DNA of 64,000 bases from Dipteris shenzhenensis (Eukaryota). Positions 14,500-62,963 of the stretch are shown here, one piece after another. The number at the start of each line of letters is the position of its first letter. Positions within the stretch are counted from its first letter, which is position 1. The notes below the pieces were generated by a model. That model had not been told where the DNA came from. It made no database searches and saw nothing but the letters and a program-made list of their open reading frames with translations. Location: NCBI GenBank assembly GCA_047967505.1, contig CM106538.1; one strand, 5' to 3'. A program made the position numbers and the translations under genes.

Positions 14500-16070
14500 T
14501 ATGCTGTCTAGATTAACTCTATTGAAAGCTTGGGCCAGCTTCAGAAATACCCTTCGCAGAGTTCCTCCCTCCTTTATCGATGAGATTGACAGGCGACCTA
14601 TCATATGTAATAACAGTATACATGATGAGCATGGTAGGCAGCTTGGTTTGTCTCATTATATGCAGTGGTCCAGGTGGGAGAGAGGGCCTGCCGCCTCGGT
14701 AGGTTCTTGGAAAGCCTTCAAGAGGCTTCTAGAAGATCGTCAACAGCATAATCCATATCACTCGACACATTCAAAATATTTTCAAATATATCCTGTGACT
14801 TGATGAACTCATTCTATTCTTGGTCCACTACCTACAAGCAGATGTTACAAATCCTGAGAGCCAAAGCTTTAGCCAGCACCTTAGGAAGGTATTAAGCATG
14901 GTGATTGGCCTCCAATCCCCAAATTTTAACCATTCCTGGTGCTTCAGAAATAGTTTCACCAAAAATGACCCCTCAACATTGCATGATTAGCCATATCTAT
15001 GAGATCACCTTTTAGCATGTCCCAAAAGGCAACAAATAACTCTGCTGTGAAACTGTCACGTACCAGAGACTTATCTTTTTCCATCATTGACACCACCTCC
15101 CTCAGTTCCTCCTCAACAAACGGGCAGCCCAACATACTTCTCTGGAAATTTCACACCCGCATTTGAACATCCTCCAGCATCTCCGTAAGGCATTCCTTCC
15201 ACTACTAGTCATGTACATTGGCATCCCCAACTATTGAACTTAGTTTCAAGTGGAATACCTCCACCACATGCCAAAACTCAATGACTAAGTTACCTTGTTT
15301 ATGTAGAAGCTAATCAATTCTTTCCCTGATACGCTTTCTCCAAACTGACTAGAAGAAAACTTTGGAGGGATAGTCACCCACTGACAATCAAAGTTGTTGG
15401 CTCTTCAGTTGAGACACCCTTGCATCTTCCAGCTCCTTGACTTGCAATGCAACCTCTGTTTCCACCAACGGGGTCCCCACAAACGGGCCTGCGGATACAA
15501 ATCAAGTTTTCAATGCTGACCTGGCATAGAGCAACGCCTCTTCCTCATGGCTCTTGCACCCACATTGTTCTTTACACCATTTTACACCATTCTTGGGTCA
15601 CCAAGAGGATAGTTTGGACTGATTTATCCCACTTGACACAGAGATCCACAAATCCGACCAGTCTTGAGCCATGTACTGTGAATTTGCTTGCAAAACACTT
15701 TACATTGCAGAAGGCCACTGTCAAATTTTAAAGACACCTCCAGTAACCTACACCATGAGACCATCAAAGAGAACCGCCAGCAGACTGACAAATGATATGG
15801 CAGGACTGAAGGCAAAATGTAGGAGACCCCAAAAGGGGCACATAGGCACGACCCTTCTTCTGAAACATACCGCGTGTCTATCTTACTCGCACAGAACTGA
15901 GACCCCTAGCAACGATTATTCCAGGAAAAGCCACCCATTCCCTGTTCATCTGATTTGGCATAGTCAAGAAGCCCCTAAGACAAAACTAAGTCCTCAAGCT
16001 TCCCTCTTAGCCCCAAAAAAAACTCCGCCCAAGGTGAGACAAAAGTAAGTTCCTTTAGAAGCTTTTCTCC
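14500..16070 (-). mobile_element. Heavily decayed L1-like LINE fragment (RT start, probable endonuclease remnant)
   Basis: Minus strand at 14850-14960 reads VKLFLKHQEWLKFGDWRPITMLNT../KVLAKALALRI, matching the L1 RT motif WRPI.LLN..YK..AK..A.R. Boundaries are approximate. Confidence 0.6.
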
Positions 16071-18468
16071 ACATGGTGATCTATCATGCACTCCTGCTTT
16101 GTCACTACAACCAAGTAGGTCAATGCTTGGTATCACTTCACTCAGCTTCCATTAAAGACCTTGGGAATCTCCTGGTCGGCAAGTTTGCTAGCTATATGGT
16201 GTCGTTGCTAAAGACCTTGGTAATCTTGTAGGGCTCGTTCCAACCAAGTTTGAGATTGGACTTGAGTGGCTCTTGATTCGCATTACACAACAAGACCAAA
16301 CCTCTCTTAAGATTCGTCCAAACAATGTGCCGGTCATGCCAAGATTTCCTCCTTTTTTGGATACTTGTTGCAACCAAGCTACTTGGATGTGCACCTCATC
16401 TAGGTCAGGGAGTTGTTGCAATCATCTCTTGATTGCCACAAGTTTCCCAAGATGATGCTTGACCACCACTTAGAGACTTGGGACAAAAATTCCAAAGATG
16501 ACATAGCCGCCAGGAACAAATGCCATTTTGAAAAGACGATTACCTTGTGATATGGGTGTCCCAATCTCATTGATGTGTGCTCACCATCTTGGTGAGAATG
16601 TACTTGAGAATGTTTTTAGTGGACTTGGCACATTAGGGATAGTAAGTTGTGGCAACTTGGTGCTTCACCATGAACTCAATCATTAGTGATTGGAATACAT
16701 TCATAAAGTTGGATACTAACAATTGGACAACAATAACTTCAAATGATATATTCAAAGATGGATATTGTGCTACCAGTCGAGTTGTCTTGTAGGGCCTTAG
16801 CTTCTACCTACTTGGTAGCATAATGTGTGGCCACATATGTATTTGTTTAGTGTGAACTAAGCCACATTTTTCAAAGGCCTAATGCAATCCAAAGTAATCA
16901 AAGCCTTGGATGTAGTGACATGTGGCGCTACGGGAGTAAGCGACATGTTTGTTTAATAAAACATCACATTCAACACACCAAGCATGCGTATCCCATAACA
17001 AACACAAACCTGCTTGAAAAACTTGTTGAGCTATTAGCTCACCATCACAGTGACCTCTAGTAGGTTCGATATGCACCTTGTTGAGCGCTGTTGCCTGTTC
17101 ATGCAATAGCACCCAATGCCACAATACTCCATCAAGCTATATTTCGAGGCTTTCAAAGTAAACTGTCTGTTCTTGTCTTAGGAGATCTTCTCAAGAAATG
17201 TACCTTGTGATACTATGACATTTGTCATCCTCGGTGCTTGAAAATACAAACAATTGTACATTTGGGGGCTCGATTGTGGCTTCCTGGTTTTGATTTGGGG
17301 TCACTGGGTAAACATGACAAGCAATCTGTATGTGCATGGGATTTTCCAAGCTTGTGAATGATCTTCAAATTGAACTCTTATAATAGTAGCATCCACCTCA
17401 TCAAGTATGACCCCTAAATCACTATCTTGTTCATCTAATACAACAAAGCTTGGTGGTCAACATAGAAGACAAATGGATTACCAAGCAGATAGTGCGGCTT
17501 CATGCTTGATAATGCTATAGTCAAGTGCTCTTATGAACCGCTTGGCATATTGGGTAGTCTAGCCTACCATCTGGCTGTGCCAAAATAATGCCAATTGCAT
17601 AGCCTAAAGCATCCACAAGGACATGGAAACTACATCCACATGGGTTGTTTGAGAATAAGTGTTTGGTTTGCTCATTTATTGAGTTCATGAAATGTTGCAA
17701 ACAACTCCTTGGTCCATTGAAAATGAGTATCCTTCTTGGTCATGTCACATAGAGGTTAGCAAAATCCTTCACTAACCTCATGTAGAAGTTGTTCAATCCA
17801 ACAAAGGATTTGAGTTGTGTTAGATTCTCTGGTTCAGTTATTTGCTTGATTGCTTGGATCTTAGTTAGCTTAGTCTAAATGCGTTCCTTGAAAATTAAGT
17901 GACCAAGCAATACACCAATCTATACATGAAAAACACACTTGGATGGGTTCAGGGAGATGCCTACCTACACTTGGCAAAAAGTTTTTCAAGACAAGTAAAA
18001 TGCATGAACATTGCCTAGTATGAACAAAAATCATCCAAGTAAATGGTAATAAGCTCGGTCAAATAATCTCAAAAAGTCACACCATGAACCTCTAAAAAGT
18101 TGATGGTGCATTACATAGACCAAATGGCATGACTTTACAGGCATATGCAACCCATTATATGATAAATGGAGTCTTATGCTGATCCTTAGGTGCTGAATAA
18201 ATTTGTGCCCATTGTAGCCATCCATAAATGAGTATATCTCATGTCTCGGAAATTGGTAAAGTATACCATCAGTGAAAGGGATTGGAGAAGGATGTGGCAC
18301 TATCTAGGAATTAAGGTCCTGTAATCCATAAACGAGTACATCTCATGTCTTGCAAATTGGTCAGCTATACTATTAGGAAAGGGATCAGAGAAGGATGTTG
18401 CACTGTTTGGGCATTGAGGTTCCTATAATCCACACAAACTCAAAGCTTGCCATTTGTCTTGAGAACCA
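15798..18468 (-). mobile_element. Decayed Ty3/Gypsy pol block (RT-RNaseH-integrase), copy A
   Basis: PSPIPFTDGILYQFPRHEIYSFMDGYNG (Gypsy RT), HIEPTRGH...IAQQVFQAGL (integrase N-terminal region), KLGWNEPYKITKVFSNDT (GPY/F-like). Collinear with 22838-25533. Confidence 0.8.
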
Positions 18469-18474
18469 GCATGA

Positions 18475-22837: not shown

Positions 22838-25780
22838 ATGGCAGGATTGAAGGCAAATGTAGGAACCCCCAAAAGGGCACATAGGCACGACCCTTCTTCT
22901 GAAACATACCACGTGTCTATCTTACTCGCACAGAACTGAGACCCCTAGCAATGATTATTTCAGGAACCACCCATTCCCTATTCATCTGATTTGGCATAGT
23001 TAAGAAGCCCCTAAGACAAAACTAAGTCCTCAAGCTTCCCTCTTAGCCCAAAAAAAAACTCTGCCCAAGGTGAGACAGAACTAAGTTCCTTTAGAGCCTT
23101 TCCTCCACATGGTGATCTATCATGCACTCCTGCTTTGTCACTACAACCAAGTAGGTCAATGCTTGGTATCACTTCACTCAACTTCCATTAAAGACCTTGG
23201 GAATATCTTGGTCGTGTGAGTTTGCTGGCTATATGGTGTCGTTGCTAAAGACCTTGGTAATCTTGTAGGGCTCATTCCAACCAAGTTTGATATTGGACTT
23301 GAGTGGCTCTTGATTCGCATTACACAACAAGACAAGCAAACCTCTCTTAAGATTCATTCGAACAATGTGCCGATCATGCCAAGATCTCCTTTTTTGGATC
23401 ACTTGTTGCAACCAAGCTAGTTGGAAGTCCACCTCATCTAGGTCAGTGAGTTGTTGCAATCATCTCTTGATTGCCACAAGTTCCCCAAGATGATGCTTGA
23501 CCAGCATTTAGAGACTTGGGACAAGAATTCCAAAGACGCCATGGCTGCTAGGAACAAATGCCATTTTTAAAAGATGGTTACCTTGTGATATGGCCAGAGT
23601 GCAGCATAGCGGTGTCCCAATCTCATTGATGTGTGCTCACCATCTTGGTGAGAATGTACTTGAGAATTTTTTTAGTGGACTTGGCTTGACCATTGCACCA
23701 AGGATAGGGTAAGTTGTGGCAACTTGGTGCATCACCACGAAATCGATCATTAGCGATTGAAATACATTCATAAAGTTTGTTACTGACAATTGGACAACCA
23801 TGATATTTTCAAAGATGAACTTCGTTGTGCTACGAGTCGAGTTGTTTTGTAGGGCCTTGACTTCTGCCCACTTGGTGGCATAAGGTGTGGCCGCAATTAT
23901 GTATTTGTTTATTGTGAACTAAGCCACATTTTTCAAAGGCCTAATGTAATCCGAGACCCATATTGCTTTCCATGGCTGGCTTGGATGTAGTGACATGTGA
24001 CACAATGGGAGTAAGTGACATGTTCATTTGATAAAACATCACATTCAACACACCAAGCATGCATATCCCATAACAAACACAAACCTTCCCAAAAAACTTT
24101 TTGAGCTATTAGTAGCTCAGCACAAAATTGACCTCCACTAGGTCCAGTATGTGCCTTGTTGAGCACCATTGCAAATTCATGCAATAGCACCCAATGTCAA
24201 AATACTCCATCTGCTCCTTAGAGATATAACTACCCATGAATCACGCTATATTTCTAGGCTTTCAAAGCAAACTGTTAGTACTTGTCTCGGGAGATCTCTC
24301 AAGAAATGTATCTTGTGATAAATACTATGACATTTCATCATCCTTGGTCCTTGAAAAAAAGAAACAATTGTACATCTGGGAGCTTGATGTGGCTTTCTAG
24401 TTTTGATTTGGATCACTGGGTAAACATGACAAGCAGCCTATACCTGCATAGAATTTTCCTAGCTTGCAAATGATCTTGAAATTGAACTCTTATAATAGTA
24501 GCATCTACCTCATCAAGTGTGACCCCTAAATGACTATCTTGTTTATCTAATACAACAAAGCTTGGTTGTCAACATAGAAGACAAATGGATTATCAACAAG
24601 TAGATAGTGCGGCTTCATGCTTGAAAATGCTATAGTCAAGTGTTGTTATGAACTGCTTGGTACATTGGGTAGTCCAACCTACCATCTGGCTATGCCAAAA
24701 TAATGCCAATTGAATATTTGCTCATTCATTGAGTTCATGAAATGTTCCAAACAACTCCTTGATCCATTGAAAATGTGAGTATCCTTCTTGGTTATTTCAC
24801 ATGGAGGTCAGCATAATCCTTCACTAACCTCATGTAGAAGTTGATCAATCCAACAAAGGATTTGAGTTGTGTCAAATTCTCTAGTTCAGTTATTTGCTCG
24901 ATTGCTTGGATCTTAGTTAGTTCAGTCTAAATGCCTTCCTTGGAAATTAAGTGACCAAGAAATACAATAATCTTTACATGAAAAACACACTTGGATGGGT
25001 TTAGGGAGATGCCTACCTACTAGTACACTTGGCAAAAAGTTCTTCAAGACAAGGAAAATGTATGAACATTGCCCAATATAAACAAAAATCATCCAAGTAA
25101 ATGATAATAATAAGCTCAGTCAAATAATCTAAAAAAGTCTCAACCATGAAACTCTAAACAAGTTGATGGTGCATTACATAAACCATATGGCATGAATGTA
25201 CAGCAATATGCACCCCATTCTATGATAAATGAAGTCTTATGTTGATCCTTAGGTGTTGAATAAATTTGTGCCCACTGAAGCCATCCATAAATGAGTATAT
25301 CTCAGGTCTTGCAAATGGTCAAATATACCATCAGTGAAAGGGATCAGAGAAAGATGTGGCACTCTCTAGGCATTAAGGTTCCTGTAATTCTTAAACGAGT
25401 ACATCTCATGTCTTGCAAATTGGTCAAGTATACCATCAAAAAAGGGATAAGAGAAGGATGCAACACTGTCTAGGCATTGAGGTTCCTCTAATCCACATAA
25501 ACTCAAAGCTTGCCATTTGTCTTGAGCACCACCAAGATCGGGAACAACCAATCACTTCGATCAATTGCGTGAATGAAGCCTATTTAGATCTATTGGCCTA
25601 GCTCAACTTTGACTTCTTGGCATAGTTTTGATTCATCCTATATTTTTGCTAATGCATCGGCTTGGCATATGGTATATACAAAATCTAATGTTGGTAGATC
25701 TCAGGTGGCACTCCCCATAAATTGGTATAGCTCCATACAATATTGCAAGAAAAGAATTTTGACTACCTGAAGGGGATCAT
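22838..25780 (-). mobile_element. Decayed Ty3/Gypsy pol block, copy B
   Basis: Near-identical to 15798-18468 (e.g. HTGPSGGQFCAELLIAQKVFWEGL, KLGWNEPYKITKVFSNDT). Extends further into the RT N-terminus (25530-25780). Confidence 0.8.
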
Positions 25781-26619: not shown

Positions 26620-26693
26620 CCCTTGTCACATTCCCATTGAAATGAATTAGTTTTTCTTGTCATATTGTGCTGTGACATTCTGTGTGTGTGTGT

Positions 26694-29600
26694 GTGTGTG
26701 TTTAGATTTAATAATCCCATCAATAAATGAACCATACAATCAATTCAATCACATAGAATAGCTTTAAAAATTATTTAGAAATTACACAGTTATGGAGAAT
26801 AAATACTTGAAAATCTTAAATATAGTTTTATTTCAGAAGTATAACAGCCAAACCTTGGTAGGGTTACAAAATAAGTACACAAGTGTCGAATCTGTTCGGT
26901 AGTCCAGACTCCGAGGTTAGGGTCCACTTACCTACCACCATCCAAACCAACCATTTGTTAGAACAACAAAGTTGAGCTTGGGTAGATAGGTAATGCCTGT
27001 ATTCCCTGGCTTGTTATCGCTTTACCTCTAAAAACTTGACCTAACCTTTCAGATCCTATAAGAAAGAAGAATTAACTAGATCAATTTAAGAATAAAAATT
27101 AAATGTACATAAATTGCTTGATTGGGAAATTCTAAATTAGAGAAAAAAATCCACATAATGCTAAGTGACCTATACAAGGTAGAAAATGGATCTCTATGAT
27201 AAGTGTAAAAAAGTGTTTTTTCAAATTTATGCCATAAGTAGATGTATACTCGAAATTCACATGAGCTTGGATCCATTGTTTTTGCACACAAAACTAGTAG
27301 TTAGAAATCAAAGGAAAGAGTAGCCATTACTAATTTGAGAAACAATTGTATGGTACTAGCCCAACCAAAGGCTAGCTGATCGCTTTACCTAAGAACTTGA
27401 CCTAACCTTTTAGATCTTATAAGAAAGAAGAATCAACTAATCAAAATGTACATAAATTGCTTGATTGGGAAATTCTAAATTAGAGCAAAAGATCCACATA
27501 TAATGTGTGATTACAAAACAAGGGGGCTAAACTGCACACATAAGAAGAAACATCATCCAAGTTAGACCAAGAGAAGAAACACGATCTTATGAGAAAAATT
27601 TAAACCTTTTTAAAGGGAGTAGTCCATACCCTTTTTAGAAAAAATTAAATATGGGGGGTAATCCTCACCCATCTTTGCACAACATGGGTGATTTTTTTGA
27701 GGTAAAATAAACCCATTTGCTTAAGAATTTCTATATGTATTAGTGGCAATTGATTGATTTAACCAACAAATAATTTAAGGCAATTTATTGATGGAAAAAT
27801 AGGGGAGAACATCTAACCAGGGGAATTGAAAAGATTGGTATTAGATGATAACTACAAAAAGCTAAAGGAATTACAATTAGGTGAGGGGAGTCATCCACAC
27901 CCTCCCTAAAAATAACCTAAAAGTATTAAATAAGGAACTATCCTTCATCATCTTTTTAACACATAAATTATTGTAATAGGTTCAAAAAAGGAAAATAAGC
28001 AACAAAAAACTAGTTAACCCTACAGTTGACTACACAAAAGAACCTTAAAAGGAATGGAAAATTAAGAGCACCTTTATGATAAGGTTTTTTAAAGAAAGAA
28101 ACGTGTCTAAAGCAAGTGCTACCACGCCTCATCACATAGCTTCAAAGAAAATGAAGACTCATGACAAGTTATCACGTAGGGTGGAAGCATGAAGTGAACA
28201 AGACTTAGAGATGGGAGTGATCAAGAATTGTACGCGTCATCCTTCGCAGTCTTGTCATGTGTGTTTAAGTTGCTACTCAATGGCGTGAACTAGCTTTGAT
28301 TACCTTTGCAGGTAAGCATCGTAGGGAAGCCATAAGGAGGCCATAAGGAAACCTATGGGTGATGGCCTTAGAGAAGCAAGAAGCTCGATGAACAGAATGA
28401 ATACACTTAATAAACATTGAAGTGCCAACTAGAGTAACTGTTAAACGGCTATGTCAATGAAGAAATGGTGAACCCTGCCAAGTCTTTATGCTATATGCCA
28501 AGTTGAAAAGATGAGTGAACTAATACCGAGCGATGAAAGCAAAATGGAGTAAGAAAAAATAGGTAACACATAAAGCAACGATATGCAAATGAATAAATGA
28601 TGGAACCTAAGCACGGCCAGTACCAAAAGTAATATGACATGGTGGCGGAAGATCTGTGAGAGAAGGGTGGTCCACTAAGAGGTTTGTTCAAGTCAGCCTA
28701 GATTCTAGTGACCAAAGAAGGTTGTAGAGTAGGACGAAAGTTTGCAAGGCAAAGAGCAAGAGGACGAACACCAAATAGGGTCGCAATTAGATGCAATGTC
28801 TAGCTTAAGAGGGAGTTGAAGCTACAAGGATGGAGGAGGAAAGGAAAAATAAAATCGACAAGGATAAAGAGAGTGAGTAGGAGGCATACGAAGATGGGCA
28901 CCTGAGATGGACGACTGGCTATAATGAGAGATTGTAGAAGTTTGTGGGGGTCTAAGGGCCAAAGTGCACATAAATAATAGCAGTGCTATGAGACGTTTGT
29001 ACCCTGTTTGTACAAGAAGCAAGAGGACAATTATGCGAGGGAAGGGTGGTAGTGGGGGTTAACTTTGTATATGCATGTTGGGATTAAGTCATAGGTGTGA
29101 GAGTCAAGGGTTTATGTGAGTGAAAGGGGGGGGGTGTGGGGGGGTATTATAGTGTGGGCAAAAAGGCAAAAACCGGGGGGGTATGAAGAGTATATGGTAT
29201 GAAGGTTAGAGGTGAGTTGTCGCACAAGATAGGAGTAAATTTTTATCAGGGGAATCAGACCATTAGTTAGAGTTTAAGGGAAGGGTGGGGAAAAGTAGAG
29301 GGGGTCCAACTTAAAAGACAAGGGGGGATTAAAGAGCCTAAATTATGGCAAAAAAAGAAAGGCTCTTCATACATATTGCATCAAACTGATGAAAGACAAA
29401 TCCTATACGGATTTACAAGGTAAATTAAAGGGTGCCATTAAGGTTAACATATTTGTGCAAGCACAAATTATGGGCAGAATCATGATTCAATGTGTGTGTG
29501 TGTGTGTGTTAGGGATTAACCCATGACAAAAAAAGAGGGGGACTTATCCTAAAAAGGCCATTGAGGGCTTCTAGATTACATAAATATTCAAAATGAGGTT

Positions 29601-29752
29601 GAAAAGCTTATGTACACCAAACATGAGATTCAATCAAGTGTAAAAAGAGTGATGTGTGGTTATGTGTGTGTGGTGTAAGTGGTCGTATGGCTGGGGGGGT
29701 AAAGGTGTGTGTACACTAGGAGCATTCTATGTAGTGGTAATGTGTGTGTGTG
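26694..29752. repeat. ~3 kb tandem-duplicated unit, copy A (no recognisable coding domain)
   Basis: Starts tgtgtgtttagatttaataat and ends ggagcattctatgtagtggtaatgtgtgtg. Collinear with 30062-33050. Confidence 0.9.
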
Positions 29753-30061
29753 TCCCACTCCCAACCCAGAGGGTAAGTCCACATGGTGGGGAGTTATCCC
29801 ACCATGTGGCACTTACTCCCCACCTAATAGTATGCTAAGTGACCTATACAAGGTAGAAAATGGATCTCTATGATAAGTGCAAAAAAATGTTTTATCAAAT
29901 TTATGCCATAAGTAGATGTATACTCGAAATTCACATGAGCTTGGATCCATTGTTTTTGCACACAAAACTAGTAGTTAGAAATCAAAGGAAAGAGTAGCCA
30001 TTACTAAATTGAGAAACAATTGTATGGTACTAACTCGACCAAAGGCTAGTTGGGAGATCAC

Positions 30062-33050
30062 TGTGTGTGTTTAGATTTAATAATGCCATCAATAAATGAA
30101 CCATACAATCGATTCAGTCATAGAATAGCTTTAAAAATTATTTAGAAATTACACAGTTATGGAGAATAAAAACTTAAAGAGCTTAAATATAGTTTTATTT
30201 CATAAGTATAACAACCAAACCCTAGTAGGGTTATAAAATAAGTACACAAGTGTCGAATCTGTCCGGTGTCTAGGCTCCGAGGTTAGGGTCCACTTACTTG
30301 CCACCATCCAAACCAACCATTTGCTATAACAATAAAGTTGAGCTTGGGTAGATAGGTAATGCCTATATTCCGTGGCTTGTTATCGCTTTACTTAAGAACT
30401 TGACCTAACCTTTCAGATCCTATAAGAAAGAAGAATCAACTAGATCGTTTTAAGACTAAAAATTAAATGTACATAAAGTGCTTGATTGGGAAATTCTAAA
30501 TTAGAGCAAAAAATCCACATATAATGGGTGATTACAAAATAAGGGGATTAGTCTGCACACATAAGAAGAAACATCATATAAAATAGACACCAAGAGCAGA
30601 AGCACGATCTTATGAGAAAAATTTAAACCTTGTTAAAGGGAGTACTCCACACCCATCTTTGCACAACATGGGCGATCTAGACAAATATTGTTTTTAGAGG
30701 GAAAATAAACCAATTTGCTTAAGAATGTCTACATGTATTAGTGGCAATTAATTGAGTTAACCAACCAATAATTTAAGGAGATTTATTGAAGGAAAAATAG
30801 AGGAGAACATCTAACCAGGGGAATTGAAAGATTGGTTTAAACAAGGAAAAAGATTTAATAAAAAATAAAAGAAATAGAATGAAAAAATTAAACCAAAACT
30901 TGTTAAGGAAGGGGAAAGGTGATTTAGTCCCAATAATTTAAGGAAACAACAACAAATTTCTCTATTAAACTAATTAGACAAAGAATTAAAAGAAATTGAA
31001 TTACTTTGAAAATAGCAATTTGGTTGACTCTTTGAAAACATTAATTTGAATTGATCACTTTACATTATACCGTAAGTTTTACTACAAAGGCAGTAAAGAA
31101 AATTTAAATTTAGACAATAATTAAGAAAAGAACTTTAAGGGACACCAAAATTAGATGATAACTACAAAAAGCTAAACGAATTACAATTGGGTGAGGGGGG
31201 TCATCCACACCATCCCTAAAAATAACCTAAAAGTATTAAAGAAGGAACTATCCTTCATCATCTTTTAATCCATAAATTATTGTAATAGGTTAAAAGAAGG
31301 AAAATAAGCAACCAAAAACCACTCAACCCTACAATTGACTACACAAAAGAACCTTAAAAGGGATGAAAACTTAAGAGCACCTTTATGATAAGGTATTTTA
31401 AAGAAAGAAACGTGTCTAAAGCAAGTACTACCATGCCTCATCACGCGACTTCAAAGAAAATGAAGACTCACGACAAGTTATCACGTAGGGTGGAAGCACG
31501 GAGTGAACAAGACTTGGAGACGGGAGTGATCAAGGATGATCAAGAATTGTATGCGTCATCCTTCTCAGTCTTGTCATCATGTGTGTATAAGTTGCTACTC
31601 AATGGCATGAACCAGCTTTGATTACCTTTGTAGGTAAGCATCGTAGGGAAGCCATAAGGAAAGCTACAAGTGATGGCCTCAGAGAAGCAAGAAGCACGAC
31701 GAATGGAATGAATCCCATTAATAAATGTCAAAAGTGCCAACTAGAGTAATTGTTAAACGGCTATGTCAATGAAGAAATGGTGAACCCCCCCAAGTCTTTA
31801 CGCTATACGCCAAGTTGAAAAGACCAGTCAACTAATACCGAGCGATGAAAGAAAAATGGAGTAAGAAAAAAGAGGTAACACGTAAAGCAACGATATGCAA
31901 ACAAATAAATGATGGAACTTAAGCACAGCCAGCACCAAAAGTAACATGACGGGGTGGCAGAAGACCTATGAGAGAAGGGTGGTCCACTAAGAGGTTTGTT
32001 CAAGTCGGCTTCGATTCTAGTGACCAAAGAAGGTTGCAGAGCAGGACGAAATTCCGCAAGGCAAAGAGCAAGAGGACGAACACCAAATAGGGTCACAATT
32101 AGATACAATGTCTAGCTTGAGAGGGAGTCGAAGCTACAAGGATTGAGGAAGAAAGGAAAAACAAAATCGGCAAGGATAAAGGAGGGATAAAGAGAGTGAG
32201 TAGGAGGCATACAAAGATGGGCACCTGAGATGGATGATTGGCCATGATGAGAGATTGTAGAAGTTTGTGGGGGTCTAAGGGCTAAAGTGCACATAAATAG
32301 CAGTGCTATGAGATGCTTGTACAAGAAGCAAGAGGAAAATTATGCGAGGGAAGGGTGGCAGTGGCGTTAACTTTGTATATGCATGTTGAGATTGAGTCAT
32401 AGGTGTGAGAGTCAAGGGTTTGTGTGAGTCAAAGGGGGGGGGGGTATTATAGTGTGGGCAAAAGGGCAAAAAACCGGGGGGTATGAAGAGTATGTGGTAT
32501 GGAGGTTAGAGGTGAGTTGTCGCACAAGATAGGAGTAAATTTTTATGAGGGGAATCAGACCATTAGTTAGAGTTTAAGGGAAGGGTGGGGAAAAGTAGAG
32601 GGGGTACAATTTAAAAGACAAGGGGGGTTTAAAGAGCCTAAATTATGGCAAAAAAAGAAAGGGTCTTCATATATATTGCATCAAACTGATGAAATACAAA
32701 TCCTATACGGATTTACAAGGTAAATTAAAGGGTGCCATTAAGGTCAACATATTCGTGCAAGCACAAATTATGGGTGGAATCAGGATTGAGTGTGTGTGTG
32801 TGTGTGTTAGGGATTTACCCATGAGAAAAAAAGGGGGGGACTTATCCTAAAAAGGCCATTAAGGGCTTCTAGATTACATAAATATTTTAAATGAGGTTGA
32901 AAATCTTATGTTCACCAAACATGAGATTCAATCAAGTGTACAAAGAGTAATGTATGGTTATGTGTGTGTGTGTGTGTAAGTGGTCGTATGGCTAGGGGGG
33001 TAAAGGTGTGTGTACACTAGGAGCATTCTATGTAGTGGTAATGTGTGTGT
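30062..33050. repeat. ~3 kb tandem-duplicated unit, copy B
   Basis: Same start and end motifs as copy A. Has an extra AT-rich ~310 bp (about 30835-31150) and lacks the internal module at 27158-27376. Confidence 0.9.
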
Positions 33051-33052
33051 TT

Positions 33053-33455
33053 GTAGCTACATCACATCCATAGAAAGAAATTATTAGTCTTCCTTGTCAA
33101 TGTTAGTGCACTATGGTGTTCTCTTAGCCCATCTCTTTGTGCTCTCTTCCAAACAACGAGTATATTAAGTCTTACCTTCACATTCAAGGATTGGCATGAA
33201 GCTTGTCCATTCACTCAAAATAAGTCACTCCAAAAGTTGTTTTTATGTGAAATTGAGTGTGTAGCTACATCACATCTATAGAAAGAAATTATAAGTCTTC
33301 CTTGTCAATGTTAGTGCACTATGGTGTTCTCTTAGTCCCCTCTCTTCCAAACAACGATTATATTAAGTCTACCTTCACATTCAAGGACTGGCATGAAGCT
33401 TGTCCATACACTCAAAATAAGTCACTTGAAAAGTTGTTTTTATGTGAAATTGACA
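33053..33455. repeat. ~200-bp tandem pair; partial third copy at about 41950-42085
   Basis: gtagctacatcacat...gttgtttttatgtgaaattga repeated at 33053-33257 and 33260-33453. Confidence 0.85.
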
Positions 33456-33637
33456 ATTGAGATAACTTATAATGATGTAACCCCCTTCTCTCTGAATAGC
33501 TCATAAGCAACTTGATTGACCTAGCCATAACCTTAGTATGACCATGATCTCCATAGAAGTAGCATCGGATCTATGGTGGTCCTTGGATCTTACCTTTTTC
33601 ATTTTCACCTTTGCCTTTGCCTTTGCCATATAGGTTC

Positions 33638-33925
33638 TGTTGTTACAGAGCATGGAAGCAATAGAAGATAGACACAATGAAAAGAAGTGCTCATAGAATG
33701 AAGAACTATGAGAGCCATATGTAGGGCATCTCTACATGATCACTGACATCATCGATGACTTCAGAGCTCCACAATCATCTCCTCAATTTGCTCCTAGATT
33801 CTCTCAATCATCCTATGTGGCTCTCCACCACCTAACTGTGCTTGTGGGCACCTAACTGTGCCTCTAGCACTCACACATAGAAACATAAGGTGTGCCTGAG
33901 GCATACACCTTGAGATATCCCAACA
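33638..33925 (-). repeat. 3' LTR of the non-autonomous element
   Basis: TG...CA termini (plus strand tgttgttac...atcccaaca), adjacent to the PPT. Confidence 0.92.
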
Positions 33926-34421
33926 AACCCCCCCTCAAGGAAATGCCTCAGGCTATGTCAAGGATACATCTAGTCTCATAGTTTCTCATGCCATCTCATG
34001 GTGGTCAAGGATAAATCTATGGCTAGGTTCTCATGCTAGCAAGGGTTCCCTTGGGTGTAAGGTAAACAAAAAGGGATACAGAAAGACCTTCCAATGGTTA
34101 TCTCCCCTACATGTACATGCACACAATGTCTGCAGGAGGTACCATGGAACAAAACATACACATGGCCTACATCATAAGGTGACCAGAGGTGTTTACAAAA
34201 CACACAAAACACAATAGTTTATTTTCATTCATTTTGGAGGACTATCCAGGCTGAGTACCTTGACATAAAAAGAGAGATCTGGAGCATACATAGAGATGTG
34301 TTTTAAATGCATAATCTTCAAAGGATGCCTCATCTTGTGGAGGCTCATTAACTGTAAGTAGATTGTCTTTGAAGTTGCTTCCTTTTTGGCTCTGCAAAGA
34401 AACATTGGTGTCAACTATGGG

Positions 34422-34850
34422 CTGTGTGAGCATCACCATGTCCATTATGTCTTTGGCAGTTGTATCATAGACACCACTAGAAAAAATAAGAACACTTTCT
34501 CGAAGACCATCCGTTATAGCTTGGCGCTCCTGTGCGACACCCATACCAGCTAGATACTTGGACTCTGCTTCACCTTCTACCCGTTTTACTTGGAGAATCT
34601 TCTCAGAGTCTCCTTTATACTCAGATGCCACTCGTAACCTTTGAGCGGCATTGATTTCATTCATAGCCCGCCTGACTGCAGCATCTGGTATGATATCAAC
34701 TATCAAAGTCTGTTCTATGCTGTAACCGTATGCACCCATCACCTTCTCAAGCTCTTCTGAGACAGCTTTAGCAACTTCACGCTTTTGCTCAAAGAGATCA
34801 TCTAAATTCATTTTCGGTACACAAGCTCTGACAACATTAAACACATATGC
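34422..34850 (-). pseudogene. HIR4: Uninterrupted fragment of a hypersensitive-induced reaction protein (SPFH/band-7, HIR4-like) inside the LTR element
   Basis: [73 protein letters not shown]...[37 protein letters not shown]...[10 protein letters not shown] matches the plant HIR central/C-terminal region. [15 protein letters not shown] and ITDGLRE are HIR4-type. Both termini are missing. Confidence 0.88.
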
Positions 34851-35673
34851 TTCACATGCGACTACTTTTGTGAAAACGAATTGCAGCAGCTGGTTGCAAT
34901 GCAGGAAAGATGTTTTCAAGGGGAACGCGATGCTCTCCGAGAGGCTTAATGCTCTTGCCCAACACGATGCTACCTGATTAGATGCAGCACTCAATACTCA
35001 GATCAATGATGCGGTGATTGCCAGAAGCGCTAGCTACAACTGAAGCAAGCCTTAACTGGAAATCATCACCCAGGTCAGACTACGCTCCTCGCCTGTATCT
35101 GAAAAAAATCGAAGCCCAATGGGTGCAGGTGAACCGCTTGAGGTACACGGAGCAGTCTCGTTGAGAGCTCAGTTATTAAACATGGAGGCCCGAGCGTTCC
35201 AACCACCGTGTAGCATTTGCAACTTATAGAGAATTAGCATTCACTGCTTGAAGAGCAAGATGAAAAGGCCAGCAACAGGGAGATGGAACATAGTTGAATT
35301 GCATAGCAGTGCGCAAAGAGGAAGCTGAAGTTCTAGAGCGCCGATCATCGAAGGATCAAGTCTTCACGCCTATGTGGAGCAGAGCTACGTTGAGCAGATA
35401 GTCTGCTATAGATCACGGGTGCAGCATGCGGAATCAGGGTGGAAAAGAACGTCGGAAGTGGAGCTTGTACAGCCACGCTTGTGTTGCACCTGTCTTCGTC
35501 AAATGCTTCTCTAATACTTTCTTCTGTTTTGTTATTTCGTCTCTCCTGCTCACAGGTCTACTGTAGATCGAGCTCAAGGTCTTCATGTTGGAGATGAGGC
35601 AATGGAAGAAGAGGGAGAGAGCCACAAGAAGAGTGACATTGAGCTCAAGGAGGATAGAACCGCTCTGATACCA

Positions 35674-35961
35674 TGTTGTTACAGAGCATGGAAGCAATAG
35701 AAGATAGAGACAATGAAAAGAAGTGCTCATAGAATGAAGAACTATGAGAGCCATATGTAGGGCATCTCTACATGATCACTGACATCACTGATGACTTCAG
35801 AGCTCCACAATCATCTCCTCAATCTGCTCCTAGATTCTCTCAATCATCCTATGTGGCTCTCCACCACCTAACTGTGCTTGTGGGCACCTAACTGTGCCTC
35901 TAGCACTCACACATAGAAACATAAGGTGTGCCTGAGGCATACACCTTGAGATATCCCAATA
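35674..35961 (-). repeat. 5' LTR of the non-autonomous element
   Basis: Copy of 33638-33925 with the terminal ...caaca changed to ...caata, adjacent to the PBS. Confidence 0.92.
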
Positions 35962-36150
35962 GGTTCCATGATCTCCATAGAAGTAGCATCGAATCTATGG
36001 TGGCCCTTGGATCTTACCTTTGTCATTTTCACCTTTGCCTTTGCCTTTGCCATATAGGTTCCATTAATAAATCCATGGGGTCGCATGATGTATTGTACGT
36101 AATTAGAGAAAAATAAACAGGGGGCAGGGGAGGGGGGAAGGAGGGGGGGT

Positions 36151-36888
36151 TGTAAGAAAACAATACAACTTTTTTGCTCAACAGATAACAGGATCTCGTA
36201 TGCAAGAGAGAAAAGCTGATAGTATGGAGAATCAAAAATTTGATTACTATAAAACTAATACAATAGATGGCATTATCTCCCAGCCGTGCGCTCCTATGTG
36301 AGAAGCTTCGATGGCATGCTAGAAACAGTAGAGGACAGAGGCTGGATGCTAAGGAATCAGGGTTGCTGTAGCTAGTGATGATAATTGGCTTCACGGGCTT
36401 CCTCTTATATAGCCACCACTCGTAGTCAGTTAGACCCAATTGGGTGACCGGACCCAGTTCACCCAAGACGACCGACTAGAGGTCTCGGTCCTGAAATAGG
36501 CGATGTCGACCACACAATAGAACCGTGGCACAGAATAGAGCAACTCACCTACGATATCCATTTGGACTAGAGCCATCCAGGATCATTTGGGGCTCCAAAC
36601 AGGCCCTGCAACCTGAGAGTGGGCTGCATCGGGAAATGCTCTGTCTACCCTCAGTGTGGTCAGTCATGGGATGCCTTCCCGCACTTGCATGTAGCCTAGT
36701 TGGTAGTGTGCCAACTCTATCTGAAGCCGTCTAGCCATCACGCCACACATGGCCCCCATCTGGTGTCCAAACCAGGACCTACCGGATAACCGAGCTACTC
36801 AAATGCCTTCTCCTCATATGGGGGGCTTACAAGTAGAGTTAGCTGGTTCCCGCATAGTTACATGAGAGTGGAGCATTGATATCTAACA
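36151..36888 (-). repeat. Copia 3' LTR (738 bp)
   Basis: Plus strand tgtaagaaaa...gatatctaaca; homologous to 40956-41662. Confidence 0.93.
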
Positions 36889-36918
36889 CATCCCCTCAAT
36901 GTCCACCTGCAAGTGAAC

Positions 36919-39900
36919 TTACTTTTTCGGCCCAATGCCAAGTCGATGAAGATGCCTCTCCAGCAAGTCTCTTCCAAGAGCCTTCATGAAGATGTCTGCA
37001 TCATTCTTTGTAGTCGAACAGTACACCAAGTCGACCTCTCCATCCATGATGAGCTCGCGTAAAAAGTGATATTGAATCTCAATGTGTTTTGTGCGAGCGT
37101 GGAACACAGGGTTCTTGGCAATTGCCATGCAACTCTGATTGTCACATGATAACTACGTAGGCTTGTTCTGCACTGCACCCATGTCCCCTAAAATCCTCCT
37201 CAACCACACTACCTCACAAGAAGCAAAACATACTTTTTTTACTCAGCCTCGGTAGAAGAAAGAGCAACTGTAGGTTGCTTCTTGTTGACCCATGACACAG
37301 CTCCAGATCCAAGTGAGAAATAGTAACTTGTCACTGATCTCCTGCTGTCCACATCTCCTGCCCAATCCAAGTCATAGAATCTAGTCAAGATGTTGCCCTT
37401 GGTATAGGTGATGCCATAATTAAGTGTGCCTTTGATGTATTTTAGCACCCGCATCCCTGCCCTCCAATGGTTCTCTCGGGGCTTATTAGAAAACTTGCTT
37501 AATACACCAGTCGCAAAGCTGATGTTCGGTTGCGTGTTGCACAAGCAAATCAAAGTGCCCACAAGCCTTCTGTACTTTGCTTCATCCACCAATGGTGATG
37601 AATCCTCATTTGAGAGCTTCATGTCAACCTCCATAGGGGTGCCAAATGTCTTGCACTCAGCGATGTCAAATGCCTTCAGTATCTCTCCAGCATACTTCAA
37701 CTGTGAGATGAAGATCTGTCTTGCCAAACTTCAATCTCCAAACAGAAATGCATCAGTCCGAGGTCTGTCATTTCAAACTCTCTTCCTAGCAACTACTTTG
37801 TCTACGAGATCTTCTCTTCATGGTTCCCTATTATGACAAGGTCGTCCACATAAAGGACCACGATCATACACCTACCTCCTTCTCTGTAGATATACAAATT
37901 TGCATCAGATGGGCTCCTCCTGAACCCGTTTTGTAGAAAGTAGGCATCAATCCGCTGGTACCACGCTTGTGGGGCCTGTTTCAGCCCGTAAAGTGCCTTC
38001 TTCAGTTTATAGCTTTACCTTCTGAATCGGGGATCACAAAACCTAGTGGTTGTTCCATGTATACCTCCTCCTTGAGATCTCCATTCAGAAAGGCGGATTT
38101 TACATCCATTTGAAACACGGGCCAACTGCTGCTAAAGCCAAAACATTGCAAATTGTGGTTAGTCGAGCTGTGGGAGCAAAAGTATCCTGATAATCAAAAC
38201 CATGTACCTGTGCAAATCCTTTTGCCACGAGCCGAGCCTTATAGTTATCCAATGTCTCGTCGGACTTGTACTTGGTCTTGTACACCCGCTTGGTACCGAT
38301 GACCTTGCGTTTTGGTGGTCGATCCACAAGGTCCCAAGTGTTGTTCTTCATTATGGAGCCATACTCCGATTGCATAGCCTCCATCCACCTATCATCACCC
38401 TATGCCTCTTCAAGACACTTGGATTCTTCAGAACGGATCACCTCTATTATCAAAGCGTACTTGACCAAGTGTTCCTGCGCCCTTCTTTGCTCCTCTAATC
38501 TCTTGGACCGGCGGTGTTCGGATTGTTCCTCCTCAATGGTTGGAGGTTCTCTGCCATCCAAAAGCTGCTTTACCCACTTCAAGAATGGCCATTGCCATCG
38601 TGGTTCTGCAGGCTCTTCTTCCTCTTCTTTATCTTGAATCCTCCCAAGCACTGTTGTGGGGGAGTTTGGTCTACTGTTGGTGGTTGTACTGGATGGATAT
38701 TTTGGTCTTGGTTGTCTGGGAAGGAAGCATCCTCCAATTGATGCGGCTGTTCTAAGAAGATCACATCACGACTTACTATTACCTTCTTGGTAACCAGATT
38801 ATAGAGACGGTAACCCTTCGCCTCTTCACTGTAGCCCGAGAAAATACACTTCCGGCTCTTTGGTTCCCATTTGATCTTGTTAGCATCAGGGACATGCACA
38901 AAAAAGTCACATCCAAAAACTCTAAAATGTGCAACTGAAGGTTTCTTACCAGAAAAGGCCTGCAGTGGAGTCATCCCGTTCACAGCTTTCGTGTAGCTAC
39001 GATTCAGAATGTAAACTGCCGTGTTACATGCTTTAGCCTAGAAAGTCTTTGGCAAATCTTTCCCTTTCATCATACTCCTGCCCATTTCGCAGATGATGCG
39101 CATCTTGCGCTCTGCTACTCCATTTTGCTGTGATGTATGTGGCGGGGGTTTCTGCCTCTTGATCCTGTGAATTTTGTAGTAACTTTCGAATTCACTTGAT
39201 GTGAACTCACCACCTCTGTTTGATCTCAACTTCTTCACCTTCCTTCCCGTTTCTTTCTCGACCATTACATGCCATTCTTTGAACTTACTAAAAGCCTCAT
39301 CTTTAGTCTTCAGGAAGTATATCCATATCCTTCTACTATAGTCATCGATCAACGTCATGAAGTAGTAGGGACCACCCAAAGCTTTTGTCTCCATCTTTCT
39401 GTAGAGGTCCATGTGAACGAGCACTAGAGGAGCCTTTGCCCTACCGGCCTCTTTAGGAAAAGGCTGCCAATGCTGCTTGCCCATCATGCAAGCTTCACAT
39501 ACATCGGGAAGATCTGTAATTTCTGGTAGGTCTGCAATCATTCCACTTTTATGCATCTCCTTTAAAGAACTAAGGTTTAGATGACCAAACCTCTCATGCC
39601 ACAGCTTAGTGTTGCCTCACATCGGCTCGAGCATTGAAAGCTGAGAGTTCATAGATGTTGTTGCACCGTGTACCTTTACCAATGACATTCCCTTGAAGAT
39701 CCAAAATCTGTGTGCCATTCTTATCGAAGTGAACTTTGAGGTCCCGATCCGTGATCGTAGAAATGGACAACAAGTTCCTCTTGATTTCTGGCACATAAAG
39801 AACATCAGACAACTCTTTTGCAACTCCATCTGACTTGAGAGCAATCGTACATTTTCCTTTTGCTGGACATTTTGCATCATTGCCGATTGCTACCAGGATG

Positions 39901-40885
39901 TCACTCCCTATCAGCAGATGTAGAGAGGTATACTAATCCTTACGACTGGTCATGTGGTGCGATGCACCACTGTCAATAATCCAAGGTTCATCCGCAGGTA
40001 CATGAACTGTCTCCATGCAAATCTCCTCAATTGCTATGAATAGCTCTACTGGTACTGCCTGCGTGCTATTGTTGGACTCTTTCTTTACTCCGTTCTTCTC
40101 ATCTGCAATCTTCTTTCGGCACTCATACTGCTTTTGCCCTGCCTTGTTGCAATAGAAGCACTTGATCTTTTTATCATAAGAAGAAGATGGGTTACCAGAG
40201 TCCTTACCCTTACCTTTCTTTGATCCAACCAAGAAAGCCGAGTCCTTGTCTTTTGATGCATCTCCTCCTCCATAAGCATCACACTGAAATCCTCAAAGTT
40301 GAGGGGCGGATTTCTATTCTGCGTATTCAGTGCCGTAACAAGACCGTCATACTTTGGTGGGAGAATTCGTATGCACCTTCATGCTAGATTCTCGTTGGTG
40401 ATGGTGATGGTGATGCCGATCGTAGTCATCTAATTACGCAAATTCTTCACCCTGGTGATGAACTTCTTTGCTGTTTCAGACTCAAACAGTTTCTCGTTGG
40501 CGAGTTGAGTCTCCAGATTCTGAATCCATGTCTGATTCGTGGTCTCGTACTGATTTTTCAAGACCGTCCATGCCTCCTCCGTTGTGGTGACATGTTAAAT
40601 TAACGCCATGATAGAATCACTTACACTGCAGACAATAGAACATAGTGCATCTGCATTTCTTCTTGTCCACGCGAGAATCTCATCCGCAGTTGGTACTATC
40701 TATTGTCTTGCATTGGCTGGATTCGGTCTCGCAACCGGCTTCACGTCCACCCCAGTTGCAGTATCCCAAAGCTTGTATGCGCTTAGGATGGTCTTCGTCT
40801 TGAACTTCTAGAGTGGATAGTTAGTGTTGTCCAACTTTCCGCTGTTGCTGAATGGTGGGATTCGCAGTCTTGCGGGCTGGGCCAT
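36919..40885 (-). pseudogene. Copia gag-pol polyprotein, disrupted by stops and frameshifts
   Basis: ATG at 40885; NYPL*KFK gag start; KCFYCNKAGQKQYEC knuckle; WIIDSGASHHMT protease; LVHMDL...IDDYSR...QQNGVAER integrase; YKARLVAKGFAQ RT; DWAGDVDSRRS and KNPVFHARTKHIEIQYHF RNase H. Confidence 0.95.
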
Positions 40886-40955
40886 CTCTCACAATCTACT
40901 CGCAAACAGAAACACATTACCAAATCTTCTTGCTAGAGCCCAAGCTCTGATACCA

Positions 40956-41662
40956 TGTAAGAAAATAATACAATGTCTGTGCTCAACAGATAACAGGATC
41001 TTGTATGTAAGAGAGAAAAGCTGATAGTATGGAGAATAAAAAATTTGATTACTGCAAAACCGATACAATAGATGGCGCTACCTCCTAGCCGTACGCTCCT
41101 ATGTGAGAAGCTTCAATGGCATGCTAGAAATAGTAGAGGACAAAGGTTGGATGCTAAGGAATCAAGGTTGCTGTAGCCAGTGATGATAATGGGCTTAATG
41201 GGCTTGCTCTTATATAGCCACCACTCATAGTCGGTTAGACCCAATTGGGTGACTAACCCAGTTTGCCCAAAATGACCGACTGAATAGGCCACCAACCACA
41301 TGATAGAACCATGGCATAGAATAGAGCAACTTCATTCGACCCAGAGCCATCCAAGATCATCTGGGGCTCCAAATGGGCCCCGCAACTCGAGAGTGGGCTG
41401 CCCTAGGAAATGCTCCATCTACCCTTAGTGCGGTCAGTCATGGGATGCCTTCCCACACTTGCATGTAGCCTAGTTGGTAGTGTGCCAACTCTATTTGAAG
41501 CCATCCAGCCATCAGGCCACACATGGCCCCCATTTGGTGTCCAAACCAAGACCTACTAGATAACTGAGCTACTCAAATGCCTTCTCCTCATATGGGGGGC
41601 TTACAAGTAGAGTTAGTTGGTTCCCGTGTAGTTACACGAGAGTGGAGCATTGATATCTAACA
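40956..41662 (-). repeat. Copia 5' LTR (707 bp)
   Basis: Plus strand tgtaagaaaa...gatatctaaca, next to the PBS. Many substitutions and small deletions relative to the other LTR. Confidence 0.93.
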
Positions 41663-42149
41663 GGGGTGTGTAGGGAAAAAATTACACACGTATTGGATTT
41701 AACTCCCAATTCCAAAAAGATATTCAGAAGATATATAAAGATTCAAAATTATCAAAGGACATTATAACCAGTCAGATTGGCACACGTGTGTACTTTTAGA
41801 ATGAATATTAGGGATGGATAATATCAAGAGGTACATAATGAGTTTGCAAAGAATTCCCAAGTCTCGCCAATGAAGGTGTCCTGAAAAAAACTTTTCTTGT
41901 GTGCCTATGTGTGTATGTGAGGGAGTGCAAGTTGGATAAATGAGTGTGTTAGTCCATCTCTTTGTCCTCTCTTCCAAACAACGATTATATTAAGTCTTAC
42001 CTTCACATTCAAGGATTGGCATAAAGCTTGCCCATACACTCAAAATAAGTCGCTCAAAAAGTTGTTTTTATGTGAAATTGATAGTTGAGATAACTTATAA
42101 TGATGCAACCCCCTTCTCTCTGAATAGCAGCTCATAAGCAATGTGATTG

Positions 42150-42800
42150 ACCTAGCCATAACTTGCACTTAGCCTTAGTATGACCATGATCTCGATAGAA
42201 GTAGCATCGGATCTATGGTGGTCCTTGGATCTTACCTTTGTCATTTTCACCTTTACCTTTGCCTTGTTCTAGTCTTGGAGGCCATCCTTCCTTGGGCTTA
42301 GTATCATCATGTGCCGCTCAGCTTGGGACCTAGTGATGGCATTGGGCTTAATTGATCTGTTACCGCTATCAAAACATCTCAACACTAGGGATCGATTTCC
42401 CTTCTCTTTGTATTGCTCTTGAGTAGCTTGATGTGCTCCAACCATAACTTGCACTCAGCCTTAGTATGACCATGCTCTCCAAGGGAATGGAGGAAGGAAA
42501 CCCTCAATACAAGCTAGAACTCCACTATGGGCATCAACCTAGGTGAACACAAACGAGTTATACACCATAATGACTCATCTATTGTAGTAGGATCTCTATG
42601 GGTGGCATAGCAAAATAGTAGAATAGCTCCAAGACATAGAAACCTAGGGGGTAAATTTGAATAAAAAGATGGCAATGTTGCCTTATCACAATTGCAAGGA
42701 CTATGAAATCATGGACCCAATGATGGATCCACATTAGGATGATAAGGCCATCTCATACCAATATATAGAGGATGGCATGTGAAGATGCTTGCACCTTTTT
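42150..42800 (-). mobile_element. Retroelement gag C-terminal remnant with zinc-knuckle-like motifs
   Basis: Minus strand reads RDPTTIDE, GEHGHTKAECKLW and GKGKGENDKGKIQGPP*IRCYFYRDHGHTKAKCKLW (degenerate CX2CX4HX4C). Confidence 0.55.
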
Positions 42801-62848: not shown

Positions 62849-62889
<41 letters not shown>

Positions 62890-62963
62890 TGGCTGATCTA
62901 TACAAATTTTCTCCGAGTGCCCTGTATGCCTTGCTTGATAGCCATTTATGCCTATGGTTGCAG

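Follow-up and report, generated by a model that had tools for sequence, protein, structure and literature searches.

A stretch of 64,000 nucleotides from Dipteris shenzhenensis (GenBank assembly GCA_047967505.1, contig CM106538.1), called the window in the following, harbours at positions 33638-35961 a compact element of 2,324 bp, which is bounded by two long terminal repeats (LTRs) and has its sense on the minus strand. Most probably, this is a non-autonomous LTR retrotransposon that took up 429 nt of a spliced HIR4-type mRNA via template switching, integrated together with this cargo as one unit and has been decaying since. Seen in this light, the element is a clean, base-resolved case of an LTR retrotransposon acquiring part of a spliced host mRNA: a single young copy displays its two junctions, the absence of three introns and the polarity of the mutations that followed. 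Such capture has already been catalogued in large numbers in seed plants, and thus the general picture remains unchanged; the value of the element is that of a worked case from a fern-like lineage.

A preliminary description, made from the letters of the window alone, had proposed a small LTR element with an HIR4-like cargo, and its claims are taken up below beside the results that bear on them. Contigs of four public runs (X1, X2, X4 and X7) were aligned to positions 33300-36300, and all statements on contigs of these runs refer to this alignment. The element and its immediate flanks comprise the following features:

33542-33637, no strand: left copy of a 96-nt flanking direct repeat, the last 5 nt of which (33633-33637) are the left GGTTC
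33638-33925, minus strand: 3' LTR in the sense of the element (left LTR on the plus strand), 288 nt
33926-33939, minus strand: polypurine tract region, in sense CTTGAGGGGGGGTT, immediately upstream of the 3' LTR
33940-34421, minus strand: 3' interior, non-coding, without a Pfam domain; up to ~34344-34398 common to multi-copy relatives in the four public runs
34245-34997, minus strand: stop-to-stop frame of 251 codons that holds the cargo; the first in-frame ATG at 34811 leaves 189 aa
34422-34850, minus strand: cargo, an HIR4-type SPFH fragment of 429 nt or 143 codons (residues 101-243), free of introns, stops and frameshifts
34851-35661, minus strand: 5' interior, 811 nt, 48% GC, without a protein or RNA family match
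35662-35673, minus strand: primer-binding site, in sense TGGTATCAGAGC, abutting the right (5') LTR
35674-35961, minus strand: 5' LTR in the sense of the element (right LTR on the plus strand), 288 nt
35962-36061, no strand: right GGTTC (35962-35966), followed by the right copy of the 96-nt repeat (35966-36061)

Architecture and classification of the element

The two LTRs are identical at 283 of 288 positions (self-BLAST E = 1e-142) and differ at LTR positions 36, 115, 116, 151 and 287, just as the preliminary description had counted. In sense orientation the LTR reads TGTTGGGATATC...GTAACAACA. The 3' LTR has the sense ends TGTTGG...AACA and hence the TG...CA boundaries of direct LTRs; in the 5' LTR the first sense dinucleotide is changed from TG to TA. 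The core of the polypurine tract (PPT) is a plus-strand C-run at 33928-33936, which includes seven C's (in sense GAGGGGGGG) and lies 2 nt from the left LTR. Because the primer-binding site (PBS) is found at the right LTR and the G-rich PPT at the left LTR, the sense strand of the element is the minus strand. The PBS, the PPT and a cargo in sense orientation had all been named before, and they hold up: the TGGTATCAGAGC motif and the position of the C-run both give the minus strand.

We take TGGTATCAGAGC to be complementary to the initiator methionine tRNA. A tRNA scan of the 64-kb window returned no tRNA gene, hence none to compare with the PBS, and a scan of the PBS/LTR joint against viral contigs gave no match. 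According to the available part of PMC7215508, TGGTATCAGAGC is the conserved PBS of plant LTR retrotransposons, fern copies included.

Within the interior of 1,748 bp, the frame that holds the cargo matches the Pfam family Band_7, and this is the sole Pfam family in the element. None of 30 further interior frames (at least 30 aa each) matched Pfam at E <= 0.1, and no gag or pol domain was found among them. The reported lack of reverse transcriptase and integrase is thereby confirmed. The element is a non-autonomous LTR element, as had been supposed, without capacity for gag, protease, integrase, reverse transcriptase or RNase H. A 70-aa frame in the 5' interior (35348-35557, minus strand) yielded a single match (E = 9.4e-6) among 1.84 billion representative proteins, namely a ~20-aa motif that recurs every ~69 aa in P0121 (five matching stretches), a 2,172-aa unannotated protein without a Pfam family. 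This match is weak and may have arisen by chance.

In its design the element is TRIM-like (terminal-repeat retrotransposon in miniature), and it works like a gene-carrying TRIM, but it exceeds the published size range: its 2,324 bp compare with a subfamily average of 685 bp and with 1,172-1,449 bp for gene-carrying TRIMs in the available part of PMC4717578. Minus a private middle section of 1,298 bp (see below), it would measure ~1.0 kb. An Rfam scan of positions 33000-36600 at E <= 1 gave no match to 5S rRNA, and the element is therefore not assigned to Cassandra; the best hit was one sub-threshold match to rliF (22.9 bits versus a gathering score of 60).

The ends of the element look Ty1/copia-like and point indirectly to a copia-type helper, albeit without proving it, since the PBS, the TTGAGGGG polypurine core and the LTR start TGTT.GATATC match those of the following neighbour:

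36151-41662, minus strand: older Ty1/copia element, with LTRs at 36151-36888 and 40956-41662 that are 85% identical

This neighbour is flanked by a target site duplication (TSD) GGGGT at 36146-36150 and 41663-41667 and has the reverse complement of the TGGTATCAGAGC PBS before position 40956. It retains fragmented gag_pre-integrs, rve, SH3_retrovirus and RVT_2 frames, in which the minus-strand order is integrase followed by RVT_2.

The HIR cargo and its parental transcript

The frame 34245-34997 matches Band_7 with E = 2.2e-10 over profile positions 93-171 of 176, and in a tblastn comparison with P0004, the best HIR protein of the database, the cargo shares 122 of 144 residues (E = 1e-78, residues 100-243 of 288). 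These matches bear out the claim of a segment of about 143 HIR/SPFH codons on the sense strand of the element. The SPFH domain is incomplete: its first half is missing, as is the membrane anchor at the N-terminus, and the cargo is a gene fragment rather than an HIR gene. In a tree of 27 rows the cargo clusters with Adiantum and Ceratopteris (support 97/90); this clade in turn joins seed-plant HIR4-type sequences (100/97), and the three HIR1-type rows lie across the longest branch. Owing to this placement within the HIR4-type subgroup, the earlier label “HIR4-like” was the right one, and the host would by the same token probably be a fern or one of its near relatives. The terminal branch of the cargo (0.22) is the longest among its immediate relatives.

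Older, degenerate HIR sequence beside the cargo was considered and finds no support: BLASTP returned E = 19 on the 3' side and 0.11 on the 5' side, and at the DNA level 17 of 500 and 135 of 500 shuffles reached the observed score, with the best alignments misplaced.

Three of the four public runs contain contigs that correspond to the cargo without gaps. A contig of X1 (1,421 nt) matches exactly positions 34422-34850 with 12 mismatches, one of X2 (1,514 nt) matches exactly the same positions with 11 mismatches, and one of X7 (940 nt) matches 34423-34835 with 11 mismatches; X4 holds no such HIR contig. The X1 and X2 contigs extend past both ends of the cargo. When the loose ends were translated by hand (X1 and X7, among the matches listed), they read ELQNPKEQIQ upstream and YFDTMKDIGS downstream, which are the residues expected at these places in the HIR protein alignment. 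Judged by these features, the contigs of X1, X2 and X7 are HIR mRNA-type sequences, ~97.3% identical to the cargo. Given that they match exactly 34422-34850 and run on as HIR coding sequence on both sides, the approximate junctions first placed at 34422 and 34850 turn out to be exact to the base.

A second, more abundant contig in X1, X2 and X7 matches only 34644-34706 (63 nt, the NEINAAQR region) and diverges on both sides; it probably represents the mRNA of another HIR paralogue.

The positions of introns were derived from exon probes, i.e., short predicted proteins on genomic-size contigs of up to 38 kb, which formed a first set of 43 proteins (30-77 aa) and a second set of 24 (41-132 aa). 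In the first set, at least 29 of the 43 proteins cover residues ~136/138-168, with homology ending directly after ...NEINA (residue 168), while in five of the 43 homology ends after ...EELEK(V), residues 136/137. Three of the 43 start their homology at V106, after unrelated residues in place of the invariant Y102-V103-F104, and their exon agrees in 30 of 31 residues with the fern-clade protein P0003. In the second set, homology starts at residues 167-169 after unrelated residues in six of the 24 proteins. These boundaries place introns of the relatives at codons 105/106, 136/137 and 168/169, all of them within residues 101-243.

The cargo runs uninterrupted across all three positions. Since it lacks every intron seen in the relatives, its derivation from a spliced HIR4-type mRNA is well supported, assuming that the parental gene has the same intron positions; the earlier proposal of a piece of HIR mRNA in sense orientation gains support from the same observation. 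Rice HIR genes have 3-5 introns, as given in the available part of PMC11613742.

A metagenome scan with the HIR alignment carried no intron information, as all 80 of the 80 loci kept were uninterrupted and either bacterial-type (44-54% identity) or cDNA-like. Uninterrupted full-length relatives of plant HIR proteins (loci L006-L080, 44-54% identity) are found there on contigs of up to 363 kb. Their source is presumably bacterial, and for a family associated with plant “immunity” their closeness to the plant proteins is unusual.

Proposed capture route, integration and fate of the cargo

In the proposed course of events, HIR mRNA would have been co-packaged with the RNA of the element. The reverse transcriptase would have switched non-homologously into the HIR mRNA and out of it again, at points within exons, and the integrase of a copia-type partner would have inserted the resulting chimeric cDNA. 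The element and its cargo would have integrated together, duplicating 5 bp, into DNA that is prone to tandem repeats and lies beside the older copia element, and the cargo would later have undergone neutral drift. Capture through template switching is described in the available part of PMC13317346. The route had been put forward for this element as an inference, and it fits, because the junctions appear to lie within exons, the cargo is an internal segment of the mRNA and its orientation is sense.

Alternatively, the cargo could consist of whole exons: a chimeric pre-mRNA, formed by read-through or from an element residing in an intron, would have been spliced such that HIR exons were joined precisely to cryptic sites of the element. 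In the parental transcript, a CAG indeed immediately precedes each end of the cargo, in phase 0, and P0128, which stems from a distant lineage (57% identity), ends its homology exactly after ...LTQ at residue 243. Yet the 5' end of the cargo (residue 101) falls five codons upstream of the 105/106 intron, and it is at 105/106, not at 100/101, that the three fern-like fragments have their nearby intron. At the other end, 22 of the 24 fragments of the second probe set pass residue 243, and all 22 continue with LTQYFD...; the contigs that bear five of these fragments measure 6.5-38 kb. For HIR4-type genes, the short genomic gene fragments thus lead us to reject the ends of the cargo as exon junctions. 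Moreover, the element sequence beside the junctions contains no GT or AG remnants of introns. Exon-precise capture is distinctly unlikely, and both junctions seem to lie inside exons, which favours template switching.

A further alternative is that the cargo entered, at the DNA level, an element that was already integrated, be it as filler DNA from cDNA during double-strand-break repair, by ectopic gene conversion or as an independent LINE-type (long interspersed nuclear element) retrocopy. Within the window data only one copy with these junctions is seen, and a close relative in X4 (98% identity over 33733-34344) differs in its middle section. Against this stands that the cargo shows neither a poly-A tract or A-run nor an mRNA 3' end nor a TSD of its own, the longest flank repeat being 5 nt and offset. 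The preliminary description had named a poly-A tract and a private TSD as signs of an independent retrocopy, and neither was found. A LINE-type processed retrocopy is rejected, as the cargo stops at codon 243 of 288, without an A-run or any flank repeat beyond the offset 5-mer. Entry into an integrated element also predicts a lower divergence of the cargo from the mRNA-type contigs than the LTR pair does, whereas the observed 11-12 differences in 429 sites equal or exceed that prediction. All in all, we regard DNA-level entry as unlikely.

The age of the insertion follows from the LTR pair. Its divergence (Kimura two-parameter distance 0.0176) corresponds to ~0.7 My at the rice rate of 1.3e-8 per site per year, and to a higher age at slower rates. 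Simultaneous capture and insertion predict ~3.7 changes for the lineage of the cargo, compared with the 11-12 of 429 sites at which cargo and mRNA-type contigs differ. The binomial probability is 0.31, 0.09, 0.03 or 0.02 if 6, 9, 11 or 12 changes, respectively, are assigned to the cargo lineage, and only a hint emerges that capture may have preceded the present insertion. It is the sole hint that bears on the earlier proposal of a family which moved as a unit after capture.

The LTR and the 3' interior (33733 to ~34344-34398) are multi-copy in all four public runs, with identities ranging from below 90% to exact and with exact pieces in X1. The 98% identical relative in X4 departs from the window at 34344/34345 and at 35642/35643, and hence the middle 1,298 nt are private to the window copy among the contigs aligned; only the last ~19 nt of the 5' interior beside the PBS are common to the relatives in this set. 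A joint in X4 that “goes back 1946” was not accepted as a circle or tandem array, as a collapsed LTR in a graph assembly gives the same joint.

The target site is less tidy than first claimed. Matching 5-bp copies of GGTTC do stand on both sides of the element (33633-33637 and 35962-35966), as the preliminary description stated, but they are embedded in the 96-nt direct repeat, the two copies of which (33542-33637 and 35966-36061) are identical at 93 of 96 positions. In a flank paralogue (42029-42265) the repeat unit occurs only once. The simplest reading is that the element entered where the two members of a tandem pair of a 95-nt unit meet and made a true 5-bp duplication there, because GGTTC is present three times here and a plain tandem pair would have it twice. 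The idea that the insertion itself produced the 96-nt duplication was discarded, as four extra bases (GGTT) would be left without explanation.

That the arrangement of LTR, cargo and LTR is an assembly chimera and does not exist in the organism is extremely improbable. None of the indexed public runs contains more than 21% of the words sampled from the stretch, and the arrangement thus lacks independent confirmation; the runs listed include no RNA run. However, the PBS, the PPT and the matching 5-bp duplication are coherent, the flanks continue each other, and five differences between the LTRs are not normally produced by a collapsed or mis-joined repeat. Among the matches listed, no contig of the four runs seems, by bin depths, to bridge 34422 or 34850 in the window arrangement, and none covers 34916-35622; both observations count neither way.

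Several points weigh against capture by template switching followed by integration as one unit. The intron positions come from relatives and not from the parental locus of this genome, and the mRNA-type contigs may stem from a sister species or a paralogue. Random template switching gives no account of the CAG, in phase 0, that directly precedes both cargo ends in the parental transcript; the nominal chance of this coincidence, computed post hoc, is (10/429)^2 = ~5e-4. It raises the possibility that the switch points of the reverse transcriptase follow a non-random rule. Immediately beyond the 3' junction, at ~34402-34413, lies a patch that by hand alignment agrees in 11 of 12 nt with parental sequence a few bases farther downstream. 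Furthermore, ~790 nt of the interior (34851-35642) are left without explanation, the position of GGTTC within the 96-nt repeat demands a tandem-pair target that was struck exactly at its joint, and the case for integration as a unit after capture consists of the intact ends and a weak divergence argument (P = 0.02-0.31).

The substitutions in the cargo speak of decay. Ten of the 11-12 differences between cargo and contigs are listed, of which seven are non-synonymous and three synonymous. Six of the non-synonymous differences are common to all three contigs, and in each case the cargo has a derived residue where the contig keeps the conserved HIR one (R24, V91, Q107, E108, I122 and D129); four of these six fall on invariant or near-invariant columns (A191, R207, Q208 and G229) of A4, an alignment of 16 HIR proteins. 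One further non-synonymous difference (34672) is found with the main contig of X7 and the short second contig of each run. The listed changes include eight transitions, of which six turn a G:C of the contig into an A:T of the cargo, mostly in CHH context; these are too few to interpret. Because derived replacements occupy conserved residues and the non-synonymous to synonymous ratio is 7:3, the cargo is probably in neutral decay, which points to a decaying passenger rather than a working gene.

That the chimeric element serves the host or itself is very unlikely, whether as a truncated oligomerising HIR fragment or through small RNAs acting on the HIR4 donor. To its credit, this alternative has an open frame of 251 codons (189 from the first ATG), a cargo in sense orientation behind an LTR and, as a matter of arithmetic, at least one identical run of at least 32 nt, given 11-12 mismatches in 429 nt. 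In addition, methylation of donor genes is linked to fragments captured by transposable elements (TEs) in gymnosperms and maize, according to the available part of PMC13477047. However, derived residues stand at invariant or near-invariant positions of the A4 alignment, e.g., A191, R207 and Q208, the 7:3 ratio among the ten listed differences equals the expectation for neutral decay, and the fragment lacks both the N-terminus with its membrane anchor and the initial half of the SPFH domain. Thirteen ATGs precede the open reading frame in a leader of 862 nt before the first in-frame ATG (34811). Due to these upstream ATGs and the neutral-type substitution ratio, a working truncated protein is unlikely, and the truncated oligomerising product suggested at the outset is weakened by the same two observations. 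With regard to small RNAs, the sequence would permit cross-talk with HIR4.

An improbable extension is that the element is a recently mobile vector which has spread its HIR4 fragment to several loci and, being LTR-driven and ~97% identical to the donor, supplies small RNAs by which the HIR4 immunity gene is methylated or dampened. If true, transposon and defence gene would be in epigenetic conflict. Should other copies exist, the element offers a way to ask whether captured fragments of defence genes feed back on their donor via small RNAs.

Genomic surroundings and known capture systems

The insertion site is rich in repeats. A tandem of ~200 nt lies at 33046-33453, the segment 33124-33623 resembles 41949-42265, the flank paralogue beyond the neighbouring copia element, and a ~3.2-kb tandem duplication (26693-29753 versus 29832-33054, with pieces 81-96% identical) ends ~0.5 kb left of the insertion site. 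Farther away, a direct repeat pair of 2.7 kb (15797-18474 versus 22838-25537), 85-89% identical and ~7 kb apart, may represent the LTRs of a large old element or a segmental duplication. Three other coding features were found in the window:

2462-2956, minus strand: RVT_1 reverse-transcriptase fragment
10496-11800, plus strand: open frame of 435 aa with PPR repeats
61822-62964, plus strand: frame of 381 aa with DUF1685

The PPR and DUF1685 frames are probably host genes, and the RVT_1 fragment probably is the remnant of another retroelement.

In retroviral oncogene transduction, a host mRNA segment is joined to the genome of a retroelement by RNA-level recombination during reverse transcription, giving rise to a chimera that is replication-defective and dependent on a helper. 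The present element resembles this textbook model in that a segment of host mRNA would have been built into the genome of a retroelement, and it differs in that neither junction falls on a splice site and nothing indicates that the cargo confers a selective advantage. Pack-MULEs and Helitrons are likewise non-autonomous elements that disperse fragments of host genes. In contrast to the present cargo, which is devoid of introns, they take up genomic DNA together with its introns, as stated in the available part of PMC4717578.

The LTR retroelement Bs1 of maize (Jin & Bennetzen 1994; Elrouby & Bureau 2001, 2010; as cited in PMC13317346 and PMC4717578) also lacks a pol of its own and transduced intron-free fragments of cellular genes. 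In the portions of these articles available, Bs1 combines pieces of three genes, fused in an open reading frame that is transcribed and translated, whereas the element described here carries one fragment with signs of neutral decay and is known from its sequence alone.

In design, the element resembles the GmaRetroS15-type TRIMs of soybean (Gao et al. 2016, PMC4717578, available part): small non-autonomous LTR elements with both LTRs, a 5-bp TSD and intron-free pieces of host exons. The present cargo comprises several exons in a row, and only one host gene is recognised in it. Unlike the gene-carrying TRIMs of that account (1,172-1,449 bp), the element measures 2,324 bp with 288-bp LTRs and resides in a fern-like host. 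All but two of those TRIMs have at least two copies, while the present element is known from one.

At the level of titles and abstracts, the papers listed on gene capture by fern LTR elements and on HIR retrotransposons or retrocopies include no report of an HIR fragment in an LTR element. Capture as such is widespread. Surveys exist for rice and sorghum (as cited in PMC13317346, available part), and overall the reported scale runs from thousands to hundreds of thousands of capturing TEs per genome. In a comparison of 23 vascular plants (accessible portion of PMC13477047), angiosperm genomes average tens of thousands of TEs with exon fragments, and conifer genomes have hundreds of thousands each; most of the capturing TEs carry a single fragment. 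Such genome-wide catalogues and the present case concern the same phenomenon; the former treat it computationally and in bulk, while here the junctions, the loss of introns and the direction of the substitutions are resolved in one copy.

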